Shown piece after piece: positions 13,211 to 63,733 of a stretch of DNA of 64,000 nt. How positions within the stretch are numbered: the first letter of the stretch is position 1; every line of letters starts with the position of its first letter. Made by a program: the position numbers and the translations under genes. The DNA is taken from the NCBI GenBank assembly GCA_045614605.1, contig JAZLDH010000018.1, forward strand, positions 67,258-131,257. Reading direction: 5' to 3'. Under the pieces are notes generated by a model. It did not search any database. It saw only the letters and a list, made by a program, of their open reading frames with translations, and was not told the DNA's origin. This DNA is from Candidatus Onthomorpha sp. GTDB lineage: Bacteria; Bacteroidota; Bacteroidia; Bacteroidales; P3.

Positions 13211-13355
13211 ATCTTGTCAATGTGTTTATTATTTTACAAAATTTTGTTCTACTTCTTTTCAAAACTGCAAATATACAAAAAATAAATCAATTCGCAAGAC
13301 AAGTTTACTTAATTCTCTCTTTCAAGTGGCGAAATATATACTTTTTTTTCCGCCA

Positions 13356-13700
13356 CTTAACGCCCAAATACTCGCAAAATTTCAAACTCTTAATTTCTGA
13401 TTTGTTTTTTTTGATTTATTTGCCCTTAATTAAAATTCACAAAATCAAAGTCTTAAAGAAATAAGAGCCGATTTTGATGAAATAAACCTAAGAAAACGCC
13501 GTGTTTTTGCTTAGATTTAGAGAAATATTTTCAAAGAAAAATTCTACGTTTATCGTAAAAAAAATAATTTTTCCTAAGCAAAAAATTTTTTTCTTCCGAG
13601 AATATTTTTGTTAAGGTGCGATTTTGCTAAAATTTCACTCGATTTTTGCTCAATTTTTTGAGAAAAATTTCAAACCAAGATTTGTAAAAATTTCTTTGTG
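13356..13700. repeat. Dispersed non-coding repeat, copy R1 (collinear with 30872-31250)
   Basis: Collinear blocks at equal offsets: CTTAACGCCCAAATAC...TTTCTGATT (13356), CACAAAATCAAAGTCTTAA (13438), CGTGTTTTTGCTTAGATTTAGAGAAATA (13499), then CTAAG/CCGAG A/T-run words. Confidence 0.65.
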
Positions 13701-23646: not shown

Positions 23647-23992
23647 GTGCGACACTGTTCTATCGCTGGAAGCTAAGCTTCGAGAGGAAAGTCCGAGCAA
23701 CGCAGAGCATCATACTACCTAACGGGTAGGCAAAGCAAAGAACGCTTTGACAGCAAGTGCCACAGAAAATTACCGCCCTTTAAAAGGGTAAGGGTGAAAA
23801 CGTGAGGTAAGAGCTCACGCTATGGTTTAGCGATAAATCATGGGGGTAAACCTTATGAGTTGAAAGACCAAGTATATCGGAATATAGGGGCTGCTCGTCC
23901 TTTCCGAGGGGTAGGTCGTTAGAGGCTTGTCGTGAGGCAAGCAGTAGATTAATGATAGAATTATGACAGAACTCGGCTTATAGGTGTCGCAC
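23647..23992 (+). ncRNA. rnpB: RNase P RNA (bacterial type A)
   Basis: P1 pairing GTGCGACAC...GTGTCGCAC. P4 strands GAGGAAAGTCCGAGC and ACAGAACTCGGCTTA. Conserved GGTAAGGGTGAAA and GGTAAACC elements. Confidence 0.93.
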
Positions 23993-24053
23993 ATTTTTTT
24001 ATTTTTTTTCTCTTTTCCGAAACAAAATCCTTAGAAATAGTGTCATTCATTCA

Positions 24054-28702: not shown

Positions 28703-28723
28703 TTTTCCAACTAATTGCTTGTT

Positions 28724-30850
28724 ATGAGCAGTAATCCACAATTAGAATTTGCGAGAAAATATATTGAACAAACCAATATCAATATTTTTCTCACAGGAAA
28801 AGCAGGAACAGGTAAGACAACTTTTTTAAAAAGTCTTAAAGATACATTATTTAAACGTTACGTAGTACTTGCACCAACGGGTATTGCGGCATTGAATTGC
28901 GAAGGAGTGACCATACACTCCTTTTTTCAATTAGATTTCTTGCCATATATTCCCGGCGGTGTGGTAAAACGTAAACAAATCCGCACAAACAAACTCAATT
29001 TGATTAGAAGCCTTGAACTAATTGTGATAGATGAAATCTCAATGGTAAGGGCTGATGTCTTAGACCAAATAGATGTTATTTTAAGAAAGCTTCGCAAAAC
29101 AGAAAGTCATAAACCCTTTGGAGGCGTTCAGCTATTAATGATAGGCGATTTAAGTCAATTACCACCCGTAGCAAAGCAAGAAGAATGGGATTTTCTAAAA
29201 CAATATTACCAAACACCATATTTCTTTTCCTCACGCGTATTGCAAGAAACACGTTATCAGACAATCACCCTACAACACATATATCGTCAAAGCGATTCTC
29301 GTTTTATCAATATCCTCAACCACGTTAGAGATAATATCATAACGAAAGAAATTATAAATCAATTAAACGAGAGATACAACCCCTTAATATTTACTCAAAA
29401 CAACGATGGCTTTATCATTCTTTGTTCGCATAACCATCAGGCAAACAAGATAAACGAGGATAAACTAATGCTAATCAAAAACAAATCCTACACTTTTAAA
29501 GCAGAAATCGAAGGAGAATTTGACTATCGATTGTTTCCAAATGCAGAAGTATTAGAATTGAAAGAAGGAGCGCAGGTAATGTTTTTGAAAAACGACTACG
29601 ACACGCCAATTGGTGAGAAACGCCGATACTACAACGGCACAATAGGAAAGATAGTAGAACTTAGTGAAGACAGAATAGTAGTAGAAAAAGACGAAGACGG
29701 ACAAAGAATAGAGGTAACAAAATATACATGGGAGAGATACAAGTATGAACTAAATAAAAAGACAAAAGAAATCAAACAAGAAGTGATTGGCTCTTTTACT
29801 CAATATCCTATAAAACTTGCATGGGCGATAACAATTCACAAAAGCCAAGGATTGACCTTTGAGAAAGCAATAATAGATGCCGACAACTCATTTGCACACG
29901 GTCAGTTTTACGTTGCACTTAGTAGATGTAGAAATTTAGAAGGTATGTATCTATCTAAACGATTCAATCCTAACGCTGTGATAACCGATGTATTGATTGA
30001 CAACTTCAACCTTGAACAAGAAAATAACCCTCCAACAGAAGAAGGATTTTTAAAAGACAATTTTCTTTACTATTCTCAGAATGTAAAAGAAATATTTAAT
30101 TGTGAGCAAATTAGGACTTTGAACGCAAAACTTTTCTACCTATGTGAACTTTACCTAAAAAGCGAAATAGGAGATAATTTCCTCACAATCCAAGACTACT
30201 ATAAAGAAATCGTTTCAGATATAGTACAAGTAGAAACAAAATTCCAAGCACAAATAGAACGTATCATAGAATACTCTTTTGCAAACTTAGAAACCAAAAC
30301 CCTATACGAAAGAGCAGTAAAAGCCGCTAAATATTTCTCTGAAAAAATAGAAATAATATACTCCTTAGTCTATTTCCTATCAAAATTAGAAGTAGAAGAA
30401 AACATAGGACAAGAAGACATAGAAGAAGTCTTACAAGAATTTATGATAGAAGTAGAGTTGAAACAAAGATATTTCAACTACTTAATAAACGAAGACTTTG
30501 ACCTAAAAGCCTTTCTTTCCTATAAATATAAATTATTAGCAATAGGCGACAAATTAGAATTAAAATCATATTCCTCTTTCGTTAGAAACATTAGCAAAAT
30601 CACAGAAATAGAAGACAAACCCAAAGACTTAGAACTCGATGACCTTTACCAAAAACTCAAAACATGGCGAAAAAACCAAGCCGATAGCGAAAAACTACCA
30701 GTCTTTTGCGTATTCTTAAACTCTGTCCTACAAGAAATAGTCAAAAAACGCCCAAAAACCATAATAGATTTAGGAAAAATCAAAGGATTAGGCGTGAAAA
30801 AAATAGAGAAATACGGAGAAGATATTTTAGAAATAGTCCTTAAAGACTAA
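28724..30850 (+). CDS. Pif1/RecD-like SF1 DNA helicase with C-terminal HRDC domain
   Basis: Walker A GKAGTGKTT, Walker B VIDEISMV, QLPPV and ITIHKSQGLTF motifs. C-terminal HRDC-like KLKTWRKNQA...VFLNSVLQEIV...IKGLGVKKIEKYG. ATG 28724 is preferred to TTG 28715. Confidence 0.85.
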   Translation: MSSNPQLEFARKYIEQTNINIFLTGKAGTGKTTFLKSLKDTLFKRYVVLAPTGIAALNCEGVTIHSFFQLDFLPYIPGGVVKRKQIRTNKLNLIRSLELIVIDEISMVRADVLDQIDVILRKLRKTESHKPFGGVQLLMIGDLSQLPPVAKQEEWDFLKQYYQTPYFFSSRVLQETRYQTITLQHIYRQSDSRFINILNHVRDNIITKEIINQLNERYNPLIFTQNNDGFIILCSHNHQANKINEDKLMLIKNKSYTFKAEIEGEFDYRLFPNAEVLELKEGAQVMFLKNDYDTPIGEKRRYYNGTIGKIVELSEDRIVVEKDEDGQRIEVTKYTWERYKYELNKKTKEIKQEVIGSFTQYPIKLAWAITIHKSQGLTFEKAIIDADNSFAHGQFYVALSRCRNLEGMYLSKRFNPNAVITDVLIDNFNLEQENNPPTEEGFLKDNFLYYSQNVKEIFNCEQIRTLNAKLFYLCELYLKSEIGDNFLTIQDYYKEIVSDIVQVETKFQAQIERIIEYSFANLETKTLYERAVKAAKYFSEKIEIIYSLVYFLSKLEVEENIGQEDIEEVLQEFMIEVELKQRYFNYLINEDFDLKAFLSYKYKLLAIGDKLELKSYSSFVRNISKITEIEDKPKDLELDDLYQKLKTWRKNQADSEKLPVFCVFLNSVLQEIVKKRPKTIIDLGKIKGLGVKKIEKYGEDILEIVLKD

Positions 30851-30871
30851 AATAAAATAGTTTTCTCTTAA

Positions 30872-31250
30872 CTTAACGCCAAATACGTAAAGAATTTTCA
30901 AACAAAAGATTTCTGATTGCAAATATTGAAAATATAAGCCTTTAAGCAAATGACACGAAATCAAAGACTTAACTTTTTAAAGCCTTAAATTTGCTGATTT
31001 TTCCTTTGATTTAACGTAGTTTTTGTCGCATTTTAGCGAAATAAGATCGGAGCAAACGACTCGTTTTCTCGGAAGAAAAATTTTTTTGTTCCGAGAAAAA
31101 AAAATTTTGCTCCGAAGAAAATTAACTAAGCCTCGATTTGAAGAAAATTTCCCTTGATTTTAGCCCAATTTTCGTCAGATTTTTTACAAAAAACTCAAAA
31201 ACAAAATTTCCTAAGAATAAAGATAAATTCCTTGAAATCTTATTTGAGAA
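30872..31250. repeat. Dispersed non-coding repeat, copy R2 (collinear with 13356-13700)
   Basis: CTTAACGCCAAATAC...TTTCTGATT (30872), CACGAAATCAAAGACTTAA (30955) and CGTAGTTTTTGTCGCATTTTAGCGAAATA (31015) sit at the same offsets as in R1. They are followed by CCGAG/CTAAG A/T-run hairpin words such as CTCGGAAGAAAAATTTTTTTGTTCCGAG. Confidence 0.65.
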
Positions 31251-31274
31251 AATCAAAACTTAATCTGCCTAATT

Positions 31275-31305
31275 TTTGCAGTTATTAAAAAATGTTTTAC
31301 CTTTG
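31275..31305 (+). promoter_or_regulatory. Bacteroidota sigma-A promoter (TTTG-N19-TAccTTTG) driving the structured RNA, copy A
   Basis: TTTG at 31275-31278, a 19-nt spacer, TACCTTTG at 31298-31305. Identical to the copy B promoter. Confidence 0.75.
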
Positions 31306-31310
31306 TGGGC

Positions 31311-31617
31311 AGAAATTTAAAACTAAAAAAAGGAGGACTAAAAGGAGCAAAAGAAAGACTATAATTTAGACTTAGTATTTTAATACGACATATAAAAGCG
31401 TTTTTGCTTATATTTGGTTGTATGAAACCTGCAAAATTTCATTAAAAACTAATCAAAAGATAAGTAAGACGCTCACGAGTAATATCGTGGGCTTATCTTA
31501 TTTGATTAGTTAGGTAATTGCAGGACCTCATACAACGATAAGAAGAAAGTCCCACGTTTTTTATGCCTTTGAGTCAAAGAAAGAAATAACATATCGCCAT
31601 TTGGGACTTAGGCAAAG
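31311..31617 (+). ncRNA. Unclassified structured RNA or long 5' leader, copy A
   Basis: No conserved ORF. A 122-nt extended hairpin at 31416-31537. A 3' pairing AAGTCCCA (31547-31554) / TGGGACTT (31602-31609). Collinear homology with the reverse complement of 63388-63697, with compensatory substitutions in every stem. Confidence 0.7.
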
Positions 31618-31662
31618 AAAGAAAAAACAAATTTAAATTAATAATTTAAAAATTTAAATAAA

Positions 31663-32280
31663 ATGAAACAACAAGAAAGAAAGTTAAGAGATAAGAGAGA
31701 GTTTATTAAATATTTATTATTAGATATTATTACTTTGGGTTTTTATGAAGCGTTTATGCTTTCTAATATTTCAAAAGAAATAAACTTGATTTCAAAAGAC
31801 GGAAAACGTACAATGAATTATTTGCCACTATTTTTAATGTTTGTTGGTGGTGTTATGCTTTGGGTTATTGTGTATTTTCTTACAAAGAATTTGTTGGTTA
31901 TTGACCCAGACTTATGGAGTGAAAAGGATTTAACAACAGTGATTACAGCTTCGTTTGTTGCTCTTTTAGGGTTTTTACTAATTATAATAATTGGTATAAG
32001 TATCATTGTTTGGATGTGTCGTATTACTAAAAGAATTTCAAACGAATTAAGTGTTAGAAACATAGATGCTAAATTCAGTGCTAAAACTTTTTGGCTTTTC
32101 TATTTTGTTTATCTTGTGTATGAGATGATTTGTTCTGGTGTTTGTGATGTTTTAGGAATTAAACTTGTTTGGGTATACGTTATTTGTTTACCTGGTTATA
32201 TTTTATACTATACATTTATGTTTAAGTTAATAAAGGCAATGAATTTATTAAACGCAGACTACAACCAAAAAGGGGAATAA
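31663..32280 (+). CDS. Small multi-pass membrane protein with DUF4234-like N-terminal segment
   Basis: 205 aa, about 5 TM segments. FIKYLLLDIITLGFYEAFMLSNISKEIN resembles the DUF4234 TxG(I/F)Y motif. Confidence 0.6.
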   Translation: MKQQERKLRDKREFIKYLLLDIITLGFYEAFMLSNISKEINLISKDGKRTMNYLPLFLMFVGGVMLWVIVYFLTKNLLVIDPDLWSEKDLTTVITASFVALLGFLLIIIIGISIIVWMCRITKRISNELSVRNIDAKFSAKTFWLFYFVYLVYEMICSGVCDVLGIKLVWVYVICLPGYILYYTFMFKLIKAMNLLNADYNQKGE

Positions 32281-32336
32281 TCAAATGAAAATTTGGTAAA
32301 AAGAAAATTGAATTAAAAATTAATAAATTAAAAGAA

Positions 32337-32780
32337 ATGGAAAAAAAATTAAACTTAGGATTGGAAATAATCTATTGGGGATTATTGCTTATGACGCTTT
32401 ATGTATTTCACTGTGCTTTGCATTGGTCTGGAATGGGAATAGTTGCACTTTGTTTAGTTCCTGTTGGAATTGCCTTAGGAATATGGCAAATAATCAGAGA
32501 AAAGAAAGCAGGTGAAAAAATGGCTGTTGTTATTTTAAACTTTTTAACAAAATTATGCTTATTTACAGGCTTAGTTTTTGTTGCACAACGTTGGCCAGGA
32601 GGTGGAGCATTTATGCTTTTTGCTTTTCTTCTTTATTTTGTTTCAGTTGCTGTTTCATCTTGCATTGCAGTTTATAAAGAAAGAAATGAAAAGTTGTACA
32701 TATTATTATTAATAGCAATATTATCGTATAGTTTTGGTGCTTTATTTTATAACGTATACGAATTACAAGGATTACAATAA
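32337..32780 (+). CDS. Small 4-5 TM membrane protein with duplicated (H/R)W(S/P)G motif
   Basis: 147 aa. LHWSGMG and QRWPGGG each follow a TM helix. This is possibly related to the GldL-N-like HWPG hairpin proteins (recalled from memory, weak). Confidence 0.55.
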   Translation: MEKKLNLGLEIIYWGLLLMTLYVFHCALHWSGMGIVALCLVPVGIALGIWQIIREKKAGEKMAVVILNFLTKLCLFTGLVFVAQRWPGGGAFMLFAFLLYFVSVAVSSCIAVYKERNEKLYILLLIAILSYSFGALFYNVYELQGLQ

Positions 32781-33172
32781 TGGATAAAGAAAATTTAAAA
32801 TTAGCATTATTAAGAATTGCTATTGCTTTGATTCTTTTTGAATTTGCTATAGGGGGTATTCTTCGCATTTTTGCTTTTGTAGCCTTTGAAGAGAATATAA
32901 GTAAAATGGTAATTTGTGGAGCTGTTAGTGTAATAGCTTTTGTTGTGAGTTTGTTTTTATTGAAAATACACAAACATCACAGATTAAAGTTAGATTACAA
33001 AAAAGGAAAGAGAAGATTAATCTTCGTATGTATAGGATTAATAGTTGCTGAATTGATAGTTAGTTTTTTAAGTAGATACTTTGCACTATATCTTTCCGCA
33101 TATTTAATAGTTACGATTGCAACAATTTTAACTTTTGTAGTAGATTTTCTTTGTTGTAAGCACAAAAAATAA
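32780..33172 (+). CDS. Small 4-TM membrane protein
   Basis: 130 aa. TAATG overlap with the upstream gene. Four hydrophobic helices. Confidence 0.55.
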   Translation: MDKENLKLALLRIAIALILFEFAIGGILRIFAFVAFEENISKMVICGAVSVIAFVVSLFLLKIHKHHRLKLDYKKGKRRLIFVCIGLIVAELIVSFLSRYFALYLSAYLIVTIATILTFVVDFLCCKHKK

Positions 33173-33183
33173 AGCATTAACTT

Positions 33184-33585
33184 ATGAATGCTAAAACAAA
33201 AAAGGTTGGTTACATCTTTTTATTGCTCGCAATAGTAGTAGTGTCTTTGATAATATTTCAAATAGTTACTCAAATAGATGCTCTTGATGAATATGAAAGT
33301 TATATTTCAATGCTTTTAGCCTTAGGTACGGGCTTATTGTTGAGATATGTATTTACAAGATACTGTAAACGACTTAATAGAAAAGATGAAACATACGAAA
33401 TTATTTCAAAAGAAGAGAGAAAGGCTCTCTTAACATTGATAATTTTATTTGTAACCCTTGCAATAGCGATGTTTTCAATTATAAATTTTCAAAATGATAT
33501 GTTTTTGACTTTTGTAGTTTTGATTTTCATCTTGGTTATTGCTGGTGGTCTTATTTTTAGATTATGGATTAAAGACCAAAAATAA
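33184..33585 (+). CDS. Small 4-TM membrane protein
   Basis: 133 aa, four hydrophobic helices. Starts 11 nt after the previous gene. Confidence 0.55.
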   Translation: MNAKTKKVGYIFLLLAIVVVSLIIFQIVTQIDALDEYESYISMLLALGTGLLLRYVFTRYCKRLNRKDETYEIISKEERKALLTLIILFVTLAIAMFSIINFQNDMFLTFVVLIFILVIAGGLIFRLWIKDQK

Positions 33586-58404: not shown

Positions 58405-58490
58405 AAGATGTTTCTTTGTTTTTGAAACTATAAAGTTATAAAAAAAATCAAAAAAGTTTGTCAGTAATCAAAAAAGTTGTACTTTTGCAG

Positions 58491-58590
58491 TGGGTAAGTC
58501 TTGTACGACCAGCTCCCTCTGAATCTCCCCAGGGCGGGAACGCAGCAAGGTAAGGAGGTTGTAGCGGTGCGATATAAGTAGCTTGCCCTT
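58491..58590 (+). ncRNA. ffs: Signal recognition particle RNA (small bacterial 4.5S type)
   Basis: Domain IV-like CCCCAGGGCGGGAACGCAGCAAGG. Terminal pairing GGGTAAGTC / AGCTTGCCC, followed by a T-run. Preceded by TTTG (58457-58460)-N19-TACTTTTG (58480-58487). Confidence 0.8.
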
Positions 58591-58600
58591 TTTTTGTACC

Positions 58601-62957: not shown

Positions 62958-63368
62958 TTAATTCTTTCTTTTGAACTCTTTTTTCACTCCATCACAACTT
63001 AATACTAACGTTTCTTTATCTACTTTTTCTATAATGATAACATAATTAAAAATGTTAAATTGTTTTTCGCCTATTGTATATATGAAACTTTCTTGTTCCC
63101 AGTTTTCATAGCCATCTTCTCCCTCCCATACATGTTCCAAATATTCCATTACGCCAGCCCCTTCTTCAAAGAAACAAATAGTTTCTATTCTTTCCATTAT
63201 AGGAGAATTATTACCACTAAATGTTACTTTACCAAACCAAGAACCTACAAGTTCATTTTCTTGGTCAAATACTGTTCTTTCGCAAGAAGAAAAAGTTGTT
63301 AATGTTATTATTGATAAAAATAATAACGAAATAATTTTAATTGTTCTTTTCATTTCTTTAATTTTCAT
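62958..63368 (-). CDS. Small lipoprotein, function unknown
   Basis: MKIKEMKRTIKIISLLFLSIITLTTFSSC carries a lipobox. The ORF-track TTG start at 63404 lies in the conserved RNA block, so ATG 63368 is preferred. Confidence 0.6.
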   Translation of the reverse strand: MKIKEMKRTIKIISLLFLSIITLTTFSSCERTVFDQENELVGSWFGKVTFSGNNSPIMERIETICFFEEGAGVMEYLEHVWEGEDGYENWEQESFIYTIGEKQFNIFNYVIIIEKVDKETLVLSCDGVKKEFKRKN

Positions 63369-63387: not shown

Positions 63388-63697
63388 CTTTGCCCAAGTC
63401 CCAAATGGCGATTACTTATTTTCTTTCTTTGACTTCAAGGCATAAAAAAACGTGGGACTTTTTTTCTTATCGGAGTACGAGGTCCTGAACTACCTAACCA
63501 ACCAAATAAGTAAAGCCCACGAAAATCATCGTGAGCGTTTACTGCTTTACATTGATTGGTTTGTATGAAATTGTTCAGGTTTCGTACCTCCAAGTATAAG
63601 CAAACACGCTTTTATATGTCGTAAAAATTTAACTCAGTCTTAATAATAATTATTCTTTGTCTCCTTTTTGTCCTCCTTTTTTATGGTTTAAATTTCT
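63388..63697 (-). ncRNA. Unclassified structured RNA or long 5' leader, copy B
   Basis: Its reverse complement is collinear with 31311-31617. The extended hairpin is at 63472-63591. AAGTCCCA/TGGGACTT pairing is conserved. Stem differences from copy A are compensatory. Confidence 0.7.
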
Positions 63698-63702
63698 GCC
63701 CA

Positions 63703-63733
63703 CAAAGGTAAAACATTTTTTATTAACGACAAA
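63703..63733 (-). promoter_or_regulatory. Bacteroidota sigma-A promoter (TTTG-N19-TAccTTTG) driving copy B
   Basis: On the minus strand, TTTG = 63733-63730, then a 19-nt spacer, then TACCTTTG = 63710-63703. Confidence 0.75.

Follow-up and report, generated by a model that had tools for sequence, protein, structure and literature searches.

Judged by sequence and covariation, the leader upstream of ATG 31663 belongs to a family of structured, cis-acting leader RNAs that occurs in Bacteroidales and had not been catalogued before. We analyzed this leader (copy A) within a 64,000-nucleotide stretch of a Candidatus Onthomorpha contig, hereafter the window, which also holds a second copy (copy B) on the opposite strand. 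The family is best read, with chances that we put at about even, as a novel RNA switch or attenuator that acts in cis and has a putative effector. The leader appears to be built to flip between two folds and probably decides the expression of the gene behind it; that it switches, how the switch is read out (by termination or by translation) and that an effector exists are all inferred.

Copy A lies in the 812-bp gene-free spacer of the preliminary description, which begins after the stop codon of a helicase ORF, here identified as PIF1/HRDC (28715-30850), and extends to ATG 31663, where we find that a DUF4234 membrane protein gene begins (31663-32280, + strand; Pfam assignment). The first part of this spacer (30851-31274, +) is a conserved, multi-copy intergenic module with three CTTAAC motifs and A/T-run palindromes (e.g. 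31064-31121), which is 66-82% identical to leader-upstream sequence at at least 13 other loci with differing upstream genes. The module is followed at 31275-31305 (+) by a Bacteroidota-type promoter motif (-33 TTTG, -7 TAccTTTG) that matches the claimed TTTG-N19-TAccTTTG pattern exactly, and the motif of copy B is identical (63733-63703). Of 100 leader family members, 95 have a -7 box in the 130 nt before them, and the leader would presumably be transcribed from this motif. Its 3' end passes into an A-rich spacer and translation-initiation region of the downstream gene (31618-31662, +), which we read directly from the sequence.

The DUF4234 ORF is the first of four small membrane-protein ORFs, with an M16 peptidase after them. 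While the leader does run into this downstream gene as proposed, its suggested tie to a small-membrane-protein operon did not hold, since the cassette is multi-copy and stands before many unrelated genes. The first related loci were reached via homologues of the DUF4234 protein, and in two relatives (L003 and L004) the cassette stands before a 147-aa gene instead. Exact-protein look-ups with the two downstream ORFs returned no match.

We compared the leader with 4227 models of Rfam 15 and found no match, in agreement with the earlier view that it belongs to no named RNA family. At the Rfam gathering threshold, only RNase P and small SRP passed in the whole window; in positions 30850-31700 nothing reached E < 0.05, and 18 diverse loci of the leader family likewise gave no Rfam match. 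Chance matches to miRNA-like models fell on the A/T palindromes at 31046-31125. The cloverleaf topology described below prompted the idea of a tRNA- or tmRNA-like element, but ARAGORN called no gene in 31200-31700. Our literature searches yielded no description of the leader element. That the transcript is structured and non-coding was borne out by stops in all six frames, by lengths spread equally modulo 3 and by covariation.

A scan with the apical-stem pattern gave more than 116 matches in GTDB genomes, 113 of them Bacteroidales-type; since the apical stem itself served as the search pattern, its near-invariance across the family is partly a matter of ascertainment. The pattern matches L012, L024, L103 and L125, and likewise the GC-rich metagenome matches, were rejected as chance matches in coding DNA. 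Leader copies are known from uncultured gut, rumen and termite Bacteroidales, the hosts all being uncultured MAGs, and the richest genome among the matches listed has at least nine. A co-oriented ORF lies behind the leader in 113 of 119 copies, with a median of 74 nt between U-tract and ORF start across the family, so that the element has the 5', co-oriented and ORF-adjacent placement of a riboswitch or attenuator. Among the products often encoded by these ORFs are BspA-type LRR proteins, WD40 lipoproteins and other proteins with a signal peptide. The downstream genes are unrelated to one another and mostly specify surface or secreted proteins, and no ligand-like association was found among them.

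To define the fold, 103 leader copies were aligned with a covariance model (CM), which was needed because MAFFT aligned P3 inconsistently. Canonical pairs filled 94.7% of the 4075 pair cells compared to 33-45% when the partners were slid, and the covariation score was 0.546 compared to 0.05-0.08 in the slid controls. Double changes occurred in 31 of 40 pairs, with P1, P2 and P3 each showing up to four pair types per position (UA32/CG30/AU22/GC16 at one P1 pair). G.U pairs exceeded A.C oppositions in the leader helices (91 vs 40), which points to pairing in the plus-strand RNA. The core of copy A scored 172 bits against the CM. The 122-nt hairpin that had been proposed at 31416-31537 was recovered at exactly these positions, with a minimum free energy (MFE) of -45.3 kcal/mol (z = -9.1 relative to shuffles; z = -5.2 for the whole of 31306-31662), and its three stems correspond to P1, P2 and P3/apical, all covarying heavily among the 103 homologues. 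Like riboswitches and attenuators, the leader thus contains a structured domain that is conserved with covariation.

The core fold (31417-31536, +), defined by the CM match and covariation, comprises P1 (31417-31424/31529-31536), hairpin A (31423-31427/31437-31441), P2 (31428-31434/31518-31524), P3 (31449-31464/31497-31509) and hairpin B (31512-31515/31525-31528), all on the + strand. Hairpins A and B were 94% and 98% paired, respectively, with some compensatory changes, while the 7 bp of P2 covary strongly and have a different kissing sequence in every copy. The core is probably a four-way junction in which the loops of side hairpins A and B kiss to form P2. An extended hairpin or rod, as first described, is the single-sequence MFE fold, and the "internal loops" of that rod are conserved, self-complementary local hairpins; its stems were upheld, but the simple rod gives way to the probable four-way junction with a loop-loop P2. 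An extension of the rod through ATAAAAgCGT and ACGttTTTTAT fared no better than column shuffles (366/500) and was largely reproduced by slid controls. We ascribe this complementarity to an A-run/U-run effect, and its 5' segment belongs instead to a small hairpin, P0 (AAGC/GCUU; 31396-31409, +; 90.7% paired). The 5' strand of P0, AGCGUU, is complementary to AACGCU on the 5' side of X in nearly all copies, with one compensatory case. At the tip of the core, the apical hairpin X:X' (31471-31494, +; GCUCACGA/UCGUGGGCUU) has 8 bp that are 99.8% paired and is next to a U-rich tail; X:X' followed by UUUUCUUAUUU was the sole terminator-like site called in the spacer.

Copy B (63735-63348, - strand) is 81% identical to copy A and differs from it by compensatory changes in P1, P2 and P3. 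Its promoter motif (63703-63733, -) precedes a core that, from P0 through the AUG (63437-63615, -), scored 171 bits against the CM. Within this core, X (63536-63529), X' (63522-63513) and Y (63460-63451) are followed on the same strand by a U7 tract (63450-63444) and an AUG (63443-63441) that opens an MP-stop. The 3' module of copy B (63388-63436, -) includes Z (63436-63431), Y' (63403-63396) and GGCAAAG (63394-63388), and the downstream gene (62958-63368, -) is a small lipoprotein-like ORF without a Pfam family, whose signal peptide ends in ...FSSC.

Beyond the core of copy A, the segment at 31547-31562 (+) consists of Y (AAGUCCCACG), which is complementary to both X' and Y', and a U6 tract. 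An optional 3' module (31563-31617, +) then carries Z (GAGUC, 31571-31575), Y' (UGGGACUU, 31602-31609) and GGCAAAG (31611-31617). The 3' pairing between AAGTCCCA (31547-31554) and TGGGACTT (31602-31609) that the preliminary description proposed is present and covaries, with seven sequence combinations of Y:Y' that include GUUCCA/UGGAAC, AUGUCCCA/UGGGACAU, CAGUCCC/GGGACUG and GUCUCA/UGAGAC. The alternative pairing of GTCCCACG with the apical CGTGGGC, which had been offered as the hint of a switch, gained support from compensatory changes in X', Y and Y'. Y:X' was 88% paired compared to 27-52% in slid controls, a support that, given the ascertainment on the apical stem, comes from one-sided C/U changes and a few variants, two of them apparently decayed. 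Copies with a G-to-A change in X' had a U opposite in Y in 5 of 5 cases, as against 16 of 101 canonical copies, and at one locus (L092:1838) X', Y and Y' were altered together. The duplex energies of X:X' (-12.9 kcal/mol), X':Y (-12.3 kcal/mol) and Y:Y' (-12.9 kcal/mol) make these helices iso-energetic, and they are mutually exclusive.

The subclasses vary this arrangement. In the Prevotellaceae subclass, Y reads AAGCUUGCGA and still pairs with X' over 10 bp. The Y of the rumen subclass (GUUCCACGA) is identical to the 5' strand of P2 and pairs with loop B at -16.9 kcal/mol, compared to -12.0 kcal/mol for the kissing pair. The 9 nt after X:X' and after Y contain 6-8 U. Directly after the U-tract stands a conserved AUG, which in copy A opens an 8-codon mini-ORF (MPLSQRKK and stop; 31563-31589, +). 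Of 103 copies, 79 have an AUG at this point of the alignment; in 10 it is the real start codon, in 28 it opens an MP-stop and in 20 it begins 3-12 codons, and the Eco57I-type methylase genes truly start with it. In the long form, to which both window copies belong, the real start codon lies 50-130 nt past Y and has no obvious sequestration, and duplex energies between leaders and translation-initiation regions were indistinguishable for own and cross-copy pairs (p = 0.67). A candidate helix P5, an A-run/U-run hairpin with Y in its loop, was weak (mean -3 kcal/mol, z = -0.7) and was dropped. Competing helices of the attenuator type, one of which would form a terminator or mask the start site, were found at the level of sequence and covariation.

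These helices could be combined into a two-state switch as follows. Every copy would bring its own TTTG/TAnnTTTG promoter and be placed directly before one gene. The core would be made of P0 and the closing stem P1, which would bear the short side hairpins A and B and the long arm of P3 and X:X', and the A and B loops would pair to form P2. State I would have the complete core fold, P0 and X:X' included, together with Y:Y' in those copies that have it. In state II, the downstream mimic Y would capture X', the 3' strand of the apical stem, or, in the rumen subclass, loop B; this Y helix, immediately before the U-tract and the conserved AUG, would end transcription or block access to the start site. 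A stabilized folded core would keep Y free and the gene on; candidate stabilizers are a ligand, a protein, temperature and the kinetics of folding. A more far-reaching version, which we put forward only tentatively, is a new RNA sensor class (an orphan riboswitch or a protein- or tRNA-bound RNA) whose core, a four-way junction with kissing loops, would alternate between a cloverleaf in the open state and a fold with two pseudoknots (P0:X and Y:X'). As one regulon, it would control dozens of genes per genome for surface proteins, lipoproteins and mobile elements in uncultured Bacteroidales of gut, rumen and termites.

The rival that survives best, although we consider it unlikely, is a constitutive leader module, i.e. 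a fixed 5'-UTR structure acting in RNase protection, as a processing site or as a transcription or translation insulator. Such a module and its strong promoter would move together as a ~800-bp cassette for the expression of surface-protein genes, with X':Y a static pseudoknot and nothing switching. The conservation of the entire 812-bp spacer in multiple copies ahead of unrelated genes, including the 425 nt before the promoter, would fit this explanation, as would the heterogeneous downstream genes that share no ligand-like association. Moreover, X':Y crosses P1 and P3 and may be a permanent pseudoknot instead of a second state, and the A-B kissing geometry would be expected to bring the flanks near the apex, so that a static pseudoknotted fold may be feasible. 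However, both X and Y are fully complementary to X' at equal energy, and Y:Y' covaries too, a combination that one static fold is unable to satisfy. The two subclasses also use different Y partners (X' or loop B), yet the resulting helix always lies before the U-tract and AUG.

An independent trans-acting small RNA, which would end after the apical hairpin (~190 nt) or after Y (~250 nt) and act on other mRNAs, with the gene behind incidental or reached by read-through only, seems to us distinctly improbable. The leader has its own promoter, X:X' with UUUUCUUAUUU is terminator-like, the U-tract after Y is conserved, and a truncated transcript could form hairpin A. Nevertheless, P1, P2 and P3 join sequence on either side of the apical hairpin with massive covariation, so the RNA must reach past that hairpin. 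In addition, 95% of copies have a close, co-oriented downstream ORF, conservation extends into the 3' module, 10 copies use the conserved AUG to start the gene itself, and such an sRNA would not usually have dozens of divergent paralogues in one genome.

An element acting at the DNA level, such as a mobile repeat of the MITE type, a site of recombination or inversion, or a hairpin in single-stranded DNA, is very improbable. The leader is a multi-copy intergenic sequence with a long inverted repeat, metagenome contigs break inside it, and the rumen subclass precedes a DNA methylase gene, perhaps on a mobile element. Against this stand the one-strand excess of G.U over A.C noted above, a strict orientation bias relative to the downstream ORF, and copies within the same genome that are only ~81% identical with compensatory differences, unlike recent transposition. 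A blastn search of the plasmid collection PLSDB with both subclasses and a pattern scan of viral contigs found no match. As for particular elements of this kind, a MITE- or Correia-like repeat was rejected because the terminal inverted repeats were not convincing and consisted of A/T-rich chance matches only, and a Bacteroides invertible promoter (Mpi/fin type) was rejected because the repeat arms (31417-31536) do not flank the promoter (31275-31305), which precedes them both, and because the G.U versus A.C asymmetry indicates pairing at the RNA level. Finally, a 6S-like regulatory RNA, the alternative that had been raised for the rod-like single-sequence fold, or a small protein-coding gene, as in the 31-codon TTG ORF at 31418-31513, can be set aside with near certainty, since no 6S model matches even at E up to 10, the element has two copies in 64 kb and at least nine in the richest MAG among the matches listed, the copies adjoin ORFs, every frame contains stops in at least 97% of copies, and the indels are not multiples of 3.

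Compared to known systems, the proposed switch most resembles leaders with terminators and antiterminators (riboswitches, T-box leaders and attenuators), in that a covarying multi-helix domain lies in the 5' UTR behind its own promoter and one of several mutually exclusive helices falls directly before a U-tract and start codon. T-box and c-di-GMP leaders also occur in many copies per genome, as here. The leader differs from these in having no Rfam match and no coherent metabolic regulon, in an X' strand common to two U-tract helices, in up to six competing segments (P0, X, X', Y, Z and Y') and in the conserved 425-nt upstream module that travels along. Purine and lysine riboswitch aptamers are multi-helix junctions with a loop-loop interaction, and the likeness to them is one of architecture only: a closing stem and side hairpins with pairing loops would align the arms side by side, whereas the leader has a predicted four-way junction and a 24-bp third arm and no similarity to these aptamers in sequence or model.

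Promoter-bearing intergenic repeats are known in the Neisseria Correia elements and ERIC/IRU, and Mycoplasma variable surface lipoprotein genes have conserved 5' cassettes. Like these, the leader is a multi-copy intergenic unit that would give a promoter and an RNA hairpin to the downstream gene, with downstream genes enriched for variable surface proteins and lipoproteins. In contrast, its copies are old, individually maintained by compensatory evolution and without terminal inverted repeats, and at ~800 bp and in strict orientation they are far larger and far more structured. With 6S RNA, the leader shares a size range and the look of an extended hairpin in single-sequence folding, but it is a multi-copy cis leader without a 6S model match, in which local hairpins and loop-loop pairing probably take the place of a promoter-mimicking bubble.

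If the switch reading is true, one RNA fold would control a layer of genes in abundant uncultured Bacteroidales of animal guts, standing before tens of surface-exposed proteins per genome (BspA-type LRR proteins, WD40 lipoproteins and small lipoproteins) of the kind that meet host, phage and neighboring cells. To our knowledge, few structured gene-regulating RNAs are known in Bacteroidota, a phylum that is not known to have Hfq, ProQ or CsrA and in which Shine-Dalgarno pairing is rare. Because covariation is strong, variants are many and the competing helices are clear, the leader is directly testable. Should the fold prove constitutive, these organisms would still have a natural expression module in the ~800-bp promoter-leader cassette.

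The region between promoter and P0 differs among copies, with 20 to 110 nt separating the -7 box from P0. In copy A, this variable 5' extension of the transcript (31306-31391, +) contains AGACUUAG along with the two purine boxes of the preliminary description, AAGGAGGA (31330-31337) and AAGGAG (31342-31347); the boxes are present as claimed but are not part of the core, belonging instead to this optional, variable extension. GGAGG was found in 35 of 85 leader copies. In 22 of 62 copies, compared to 3 of 62 controls, a GACUU in the 5' extension could pair with AAGUC of Y, and the two partners covary.

The spacer between a PIF1/HRDC helicase ORF (28715-30850) and a DUF4234 membrane-protein ORF (31663-32280) held no credible ORF on inspection of its sequence and ORFs. 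Pattern matching placed the Bacteroidota promoter motif TTTG-N19-TAccTTTG at 31275-31305, as the preliminary description had proposed, and the two purine boxes it reported were also read in the sequence. Of 100 copies of the element, 95 had a -7 box no more than 130 nt upstream and 61 had the full bipartite motif, but the distance from the -7 box to P0, a small hairpin preceding P1 (31396-31409), varied (about 25, 65 or 85 nt), so the purine boxes belong to an optional 5' extension. On folding, the 122-nt hairpin at 31416-31537 reached -45.3 kcal/mol (z = -9.1), with z = -5.2 for the putative whole transcript, while a suggested outer extension of the rod, ATAAAAgCGT with ACGttTTTTAT, did no better than shuffled or slid controls and was dropped.

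That the element belongs to no named family withstood a search of Rfam 15, in which no model reached its gathering score anywhere near it; the best hit of a permissive scan of 30850-31700 had E = 0.07, Rfam matches were also absent from 18 diverse family members, and the element was undescribed in the literature that our search found. Membership tests for catalogued families (Rfam, 6S, tRNA/tmRNA, MITE, invertible promoter) failed in every case. The only real RNA genes that the Rfam scan found in the window were a bacterial class A RNase P RNA (23647-23996, 255 bits) and a Bacteroidales small SRP RNA (58485-58592, 101 bits), the latter with the same TTTG-N-TAnnTTTG motif in front (58457-58487).

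A BLASTN comparison of the spacer with the window revealed a second copy, copy B (63735-63348, minus strand), which is 81% identical to the first, copy A, has an identical promoter and precedes an unrelated ORF for a small, lipoprotein-like protein. In metagenome contigs reached through homologues of the DUF4234 protein, the element preceded a 147-aa membrane-protein, WD40 or M16 peptidase gene, and in several it was truncated by the contig end (L001 1-257, L006 1-238, L005 1-44), the pattern that assembly breaks at multi-copy repeats would give; copy numbers in MAGs are thus likely underestimated. A scan of GTDB, in which every species was represented by one genome and hits were conditioned on the apical stem (pattern ACGCTCACGA-N4-9-TCGTGGGCTT), returned at least 116 stretches; all but three of those listed were copies of the element. 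The three exceptions, GC-rich matches in coding DNA, were rejected as chance matches. Among the matches listed, the copies came from gut MAGs of uncultured Bacteroidales (chicken, yak, buffalo, rumen and termite), which carry the labels Ca. Onthomorpha, Ca. Limimorpha, UBA3388, RUG bins and "Prevotellaceae" bins; one MAG had at least nine copies. Plasmid and viral collections yielded no copies. Two MAGs labelled "Clostridia bacterium" (L098, L100) carried typical copies on short contigs, most likely through binning contamination by Bacteroidales DNA.

The element is a genuine, selected RNA structure. A covariance model trained on 48 diverse copies (R1; 178 positions, 40 pairs) retrieved 103 matches from 97 sources, exactly two of them in the window (31392-31569, plus strand, 172 bits; 63437-63615, minus strand, 171 bits). 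Canonical pairs filled 94.7% of 4075 pair cells in an alignment that had been fitted to the rod structure, compared with 33-45% when the 3' partners were slid by 1-3 columns; in the R1 alignment the covariation score was 0.546 versus 0.05-0.08 in slid controls, 31 of the 40 pairs showed changes on both sides, and none of 500 shuffles attained the observed pairing or covariation values. Stems P1, P2 and P3a each displayed three or four kinds of pair at a position (e.g., UA32/CG30/AU22/GC16 and CG46/UA44/GC10). G.U pairs outnumbered A.C (91 vs 40), indicating that the pairing is read on the plus strand, as RNA. For every frame of both strands, 97% or more of the copies contained stops, and copy lengths were spread evenly modulo 3.

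The paired stems of the extended hairpin described previously are therefore real and covarying, but we prefer another reading to its rod. The supposed internal loops are conserved and self-complementary: UGAAA...UUUCA flanks the P2 5' strand and AGGU...ACCU the 3' strand, forming hairpins A and B, which are 94-98% paired with some compensatory change (CUUGA/UCAAG, CAAAA/UUUUG and CUGAA/UUCAG in A; AGGC/GCCU and GGGU/ACCC in B). These local stems suggest that P1, the P3-apical arm and the two hairpins meet in a four-way junction, with P2 as a putative loop-loop (kissing) contact of 7 bp. Support for A and B is modest, and the first two pairs of A overlap an equally covarying extension of P1, so a plain rod whose internal loops are conserved may still apply.

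Beyond the core, the element contains strands that can exchange partners. Copies hardly differ in the apical stem X:X' (GCUCACGA / UCGUGGGC), partly since it served as the search pattern. The 3' strand of this stem, X' (UCGUGGGCUU), has a second complement of 9-10 bp in Y (AAGUCCCACG, 31547-31556), a segment located 10 nt past P1 and followed by U6-8. A 3' module is present in roughly half of the copies, both window copies among them, and there Y has a further complement, Y' (UGGGACUU, 31602-31609). These duplexes are iso-energetic (X:X' -12.9, X':Y -12.3 and Y:Y' -12.9 kcal/mol). Both pairings of Y had been anticipated, and both drew support: Y:Y' covaries through seven combinations, and C/U changes in Y are confined to positions facing G of X' (GC84/GU16/AU2; GC58/GU43). 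In a termite-gut subclass, Y differs (AAGCUUGCGA) yet keeps a 10-bp pairing to X'. We also scanned metagenomes for G-to-A in X' opposite U, the one change neutral for X:X'. All three independent true members, together with both such variants from nhmmer, had the facing U in Y (5/5 combined vs 16/101 canonical copies; chance probability roughly 1e-4, ignoring relatedness). Outside the targeted scan there were only two non-decayed apical variants. At L092:1838, X', Y and Y' changed jointly (CGUGAGA / GUCUCACG / UGAGACUU). In a rumen subclass, Y (GUUCCACGA) equals the P2 5' strand, and its duplex with loop B has -16.9 kcal/mol, compared with -12.0 for the kissing pair; the core element that partners Y thus differs by subclass, with the helix directly before the U-tract in both. 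Further links in this competing chain are possible on complementarity, between P0 (AGCGUU) and AACGCU of X (one compensatory case), Z (GAAGUC) and Y', and GACUU of the 5' extension and AAGUC of Y, all in sequences that hardly vary. Decayed second leader copies (L045 7014-7194; L092 1838-2020), at distances ranging from a few hundred bases up to several kb of an intact leader, have lost P1/P2 complementarity while keeping P0, hairpin A and the Y-U-tract.

Six to eight U occur within 9 nt after X:X' and after Y alike, and a terminator scan called the apical hairpin. An AUG directly after the U-tract is kept in 79 of 103 copies. In 10 the downstream gene starts there, usually one for an Eco57I-type DNA methylase with MP as its first residues; most commonly (28/79) the AUG opens Met-Pro-stop, as in copy B (63443-63435), and in 20 copies it opens 3-12 codons, as in copy A, where it would encode MPLSQRKK-stop (31563-31589). 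A co-oriented ORF follows the element in 113 of 119 copies, with a median of 74 nt from U-tract to start. The 95 non-redundant ORFs included 13 BspA-type LRR proteins, 8-9 WD40 lipoproteins and several small XRE-like proteins, and most of the remainder were small signal-peptide proteins or lipoproteins of no Pfam family. The proposed lead into a small-membrane-protein operon fits copy A; other copies precede varied genes. Gene order in that cluster differs between close relatives, here the window (31663-33585) and L003/L004 (8731-10618): the DUF4234 gene is first in the former and last in the latter, where two extra genes (SLFN_AlbA_2 and HATPase_c_4/Fic-like) separate helicase and cassette.

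We rated the element as a structured cis-regulatory leader outside the catalogued families tested. The simplest model using all supported helices is a cis-acting switch, which we judge about evenly balanced between right and wrong. In the fully folded core, with X:X' and P2 formed, Y would be unpaired or paired with Y'; if the core is not kept together, Y would capture X' (in the rumen subclass, loop B), creating a GC-rich 9-10-bp helix just before the U-tract and conserved AUG that could act as an intrinsic terminator, an initiation block, or both. The short form, probably ancestral, would directly control a gene starting at the AUG. In the long form, to which both window copies belong, the AUG would survive as a mini-ORF, and the readout would more likely consist in U-tract termination or in coupling via that mini-ORF. 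Alternatively, X':Y could be a static pseudoknot and the element a constitutive structural leader within an expression cassette, although we consider this unlikely. More doubtful still is an sRNA that acts in trans and has its 3' end at one of the U-tracts, since covariation spans the apical hairpin, copies are strictly co-oriented with ORFs, and the AUG of some copies is the gene's own start. The G.U asymmetry, old and divergent copies, orientation bias and absence of TIRs make a DNA-level repeat very improbable. The 6S-like reading raised previously failed the 6S membership test, and a 6S RNA or a coding gene can practically be discounted.

Compared with known systems, the element is closest in putative function to terminator/antiterminator leaders (riboswitches, T-box elements), while its architecture resembles junction aptamers with loop-loop contacts and its genomic behavior resembles promoter-bearing intergenic repeats. 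Unusual for a cis-regulatory leader are its high copy number, the strand common to two U-tract helices, the chain of competing segments, the linkage to a conserved upstream module, and its confinement, in this sample, to uncultured Bacteroidales.

Unexpectedly, this upstream module, the 425 nt before the promoter (30851-31274), is itself a conserved multi-copy intergenic sequence, 66-82% identical in at least 13 other leader loci with different upstream or neighboring genes, so that the repeated unit is ~800 bp. The module is highly conserved over its first 140 nt and contains A/T-run palindromes and the motif CTTAAC three times. Between two minus-strand genes lies a partial copy of it without a leader (13355-13657, plus strand). 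In L030, a 165-aa ORF separates the module from the promoter and leader (719-1115, 1250-1747, 1847-2025), indicating that the two modules are separable. A 14-nt inverted pair, 93% complementary (TTTTCTCTTAACTT / AAGTTAAGAGATAA, 30861-30874 and 31681-31694), brackets the spacer and contains the CTTAAC/GTTAAG motif; its second arm falls inside the DUF4234 coding region, and the pair is probably due to chance. Downstream of the helicase gene, nested palindromes at 31046-31125 (CTCGGAAGAAAAATTTTTTTGTTCCGAG and GGAGCAAA...TTTTGCTCC) resemble the hairpins of bidirectional terminators; the permissive Rfam scan gave weak plant-miRNA matches to them.
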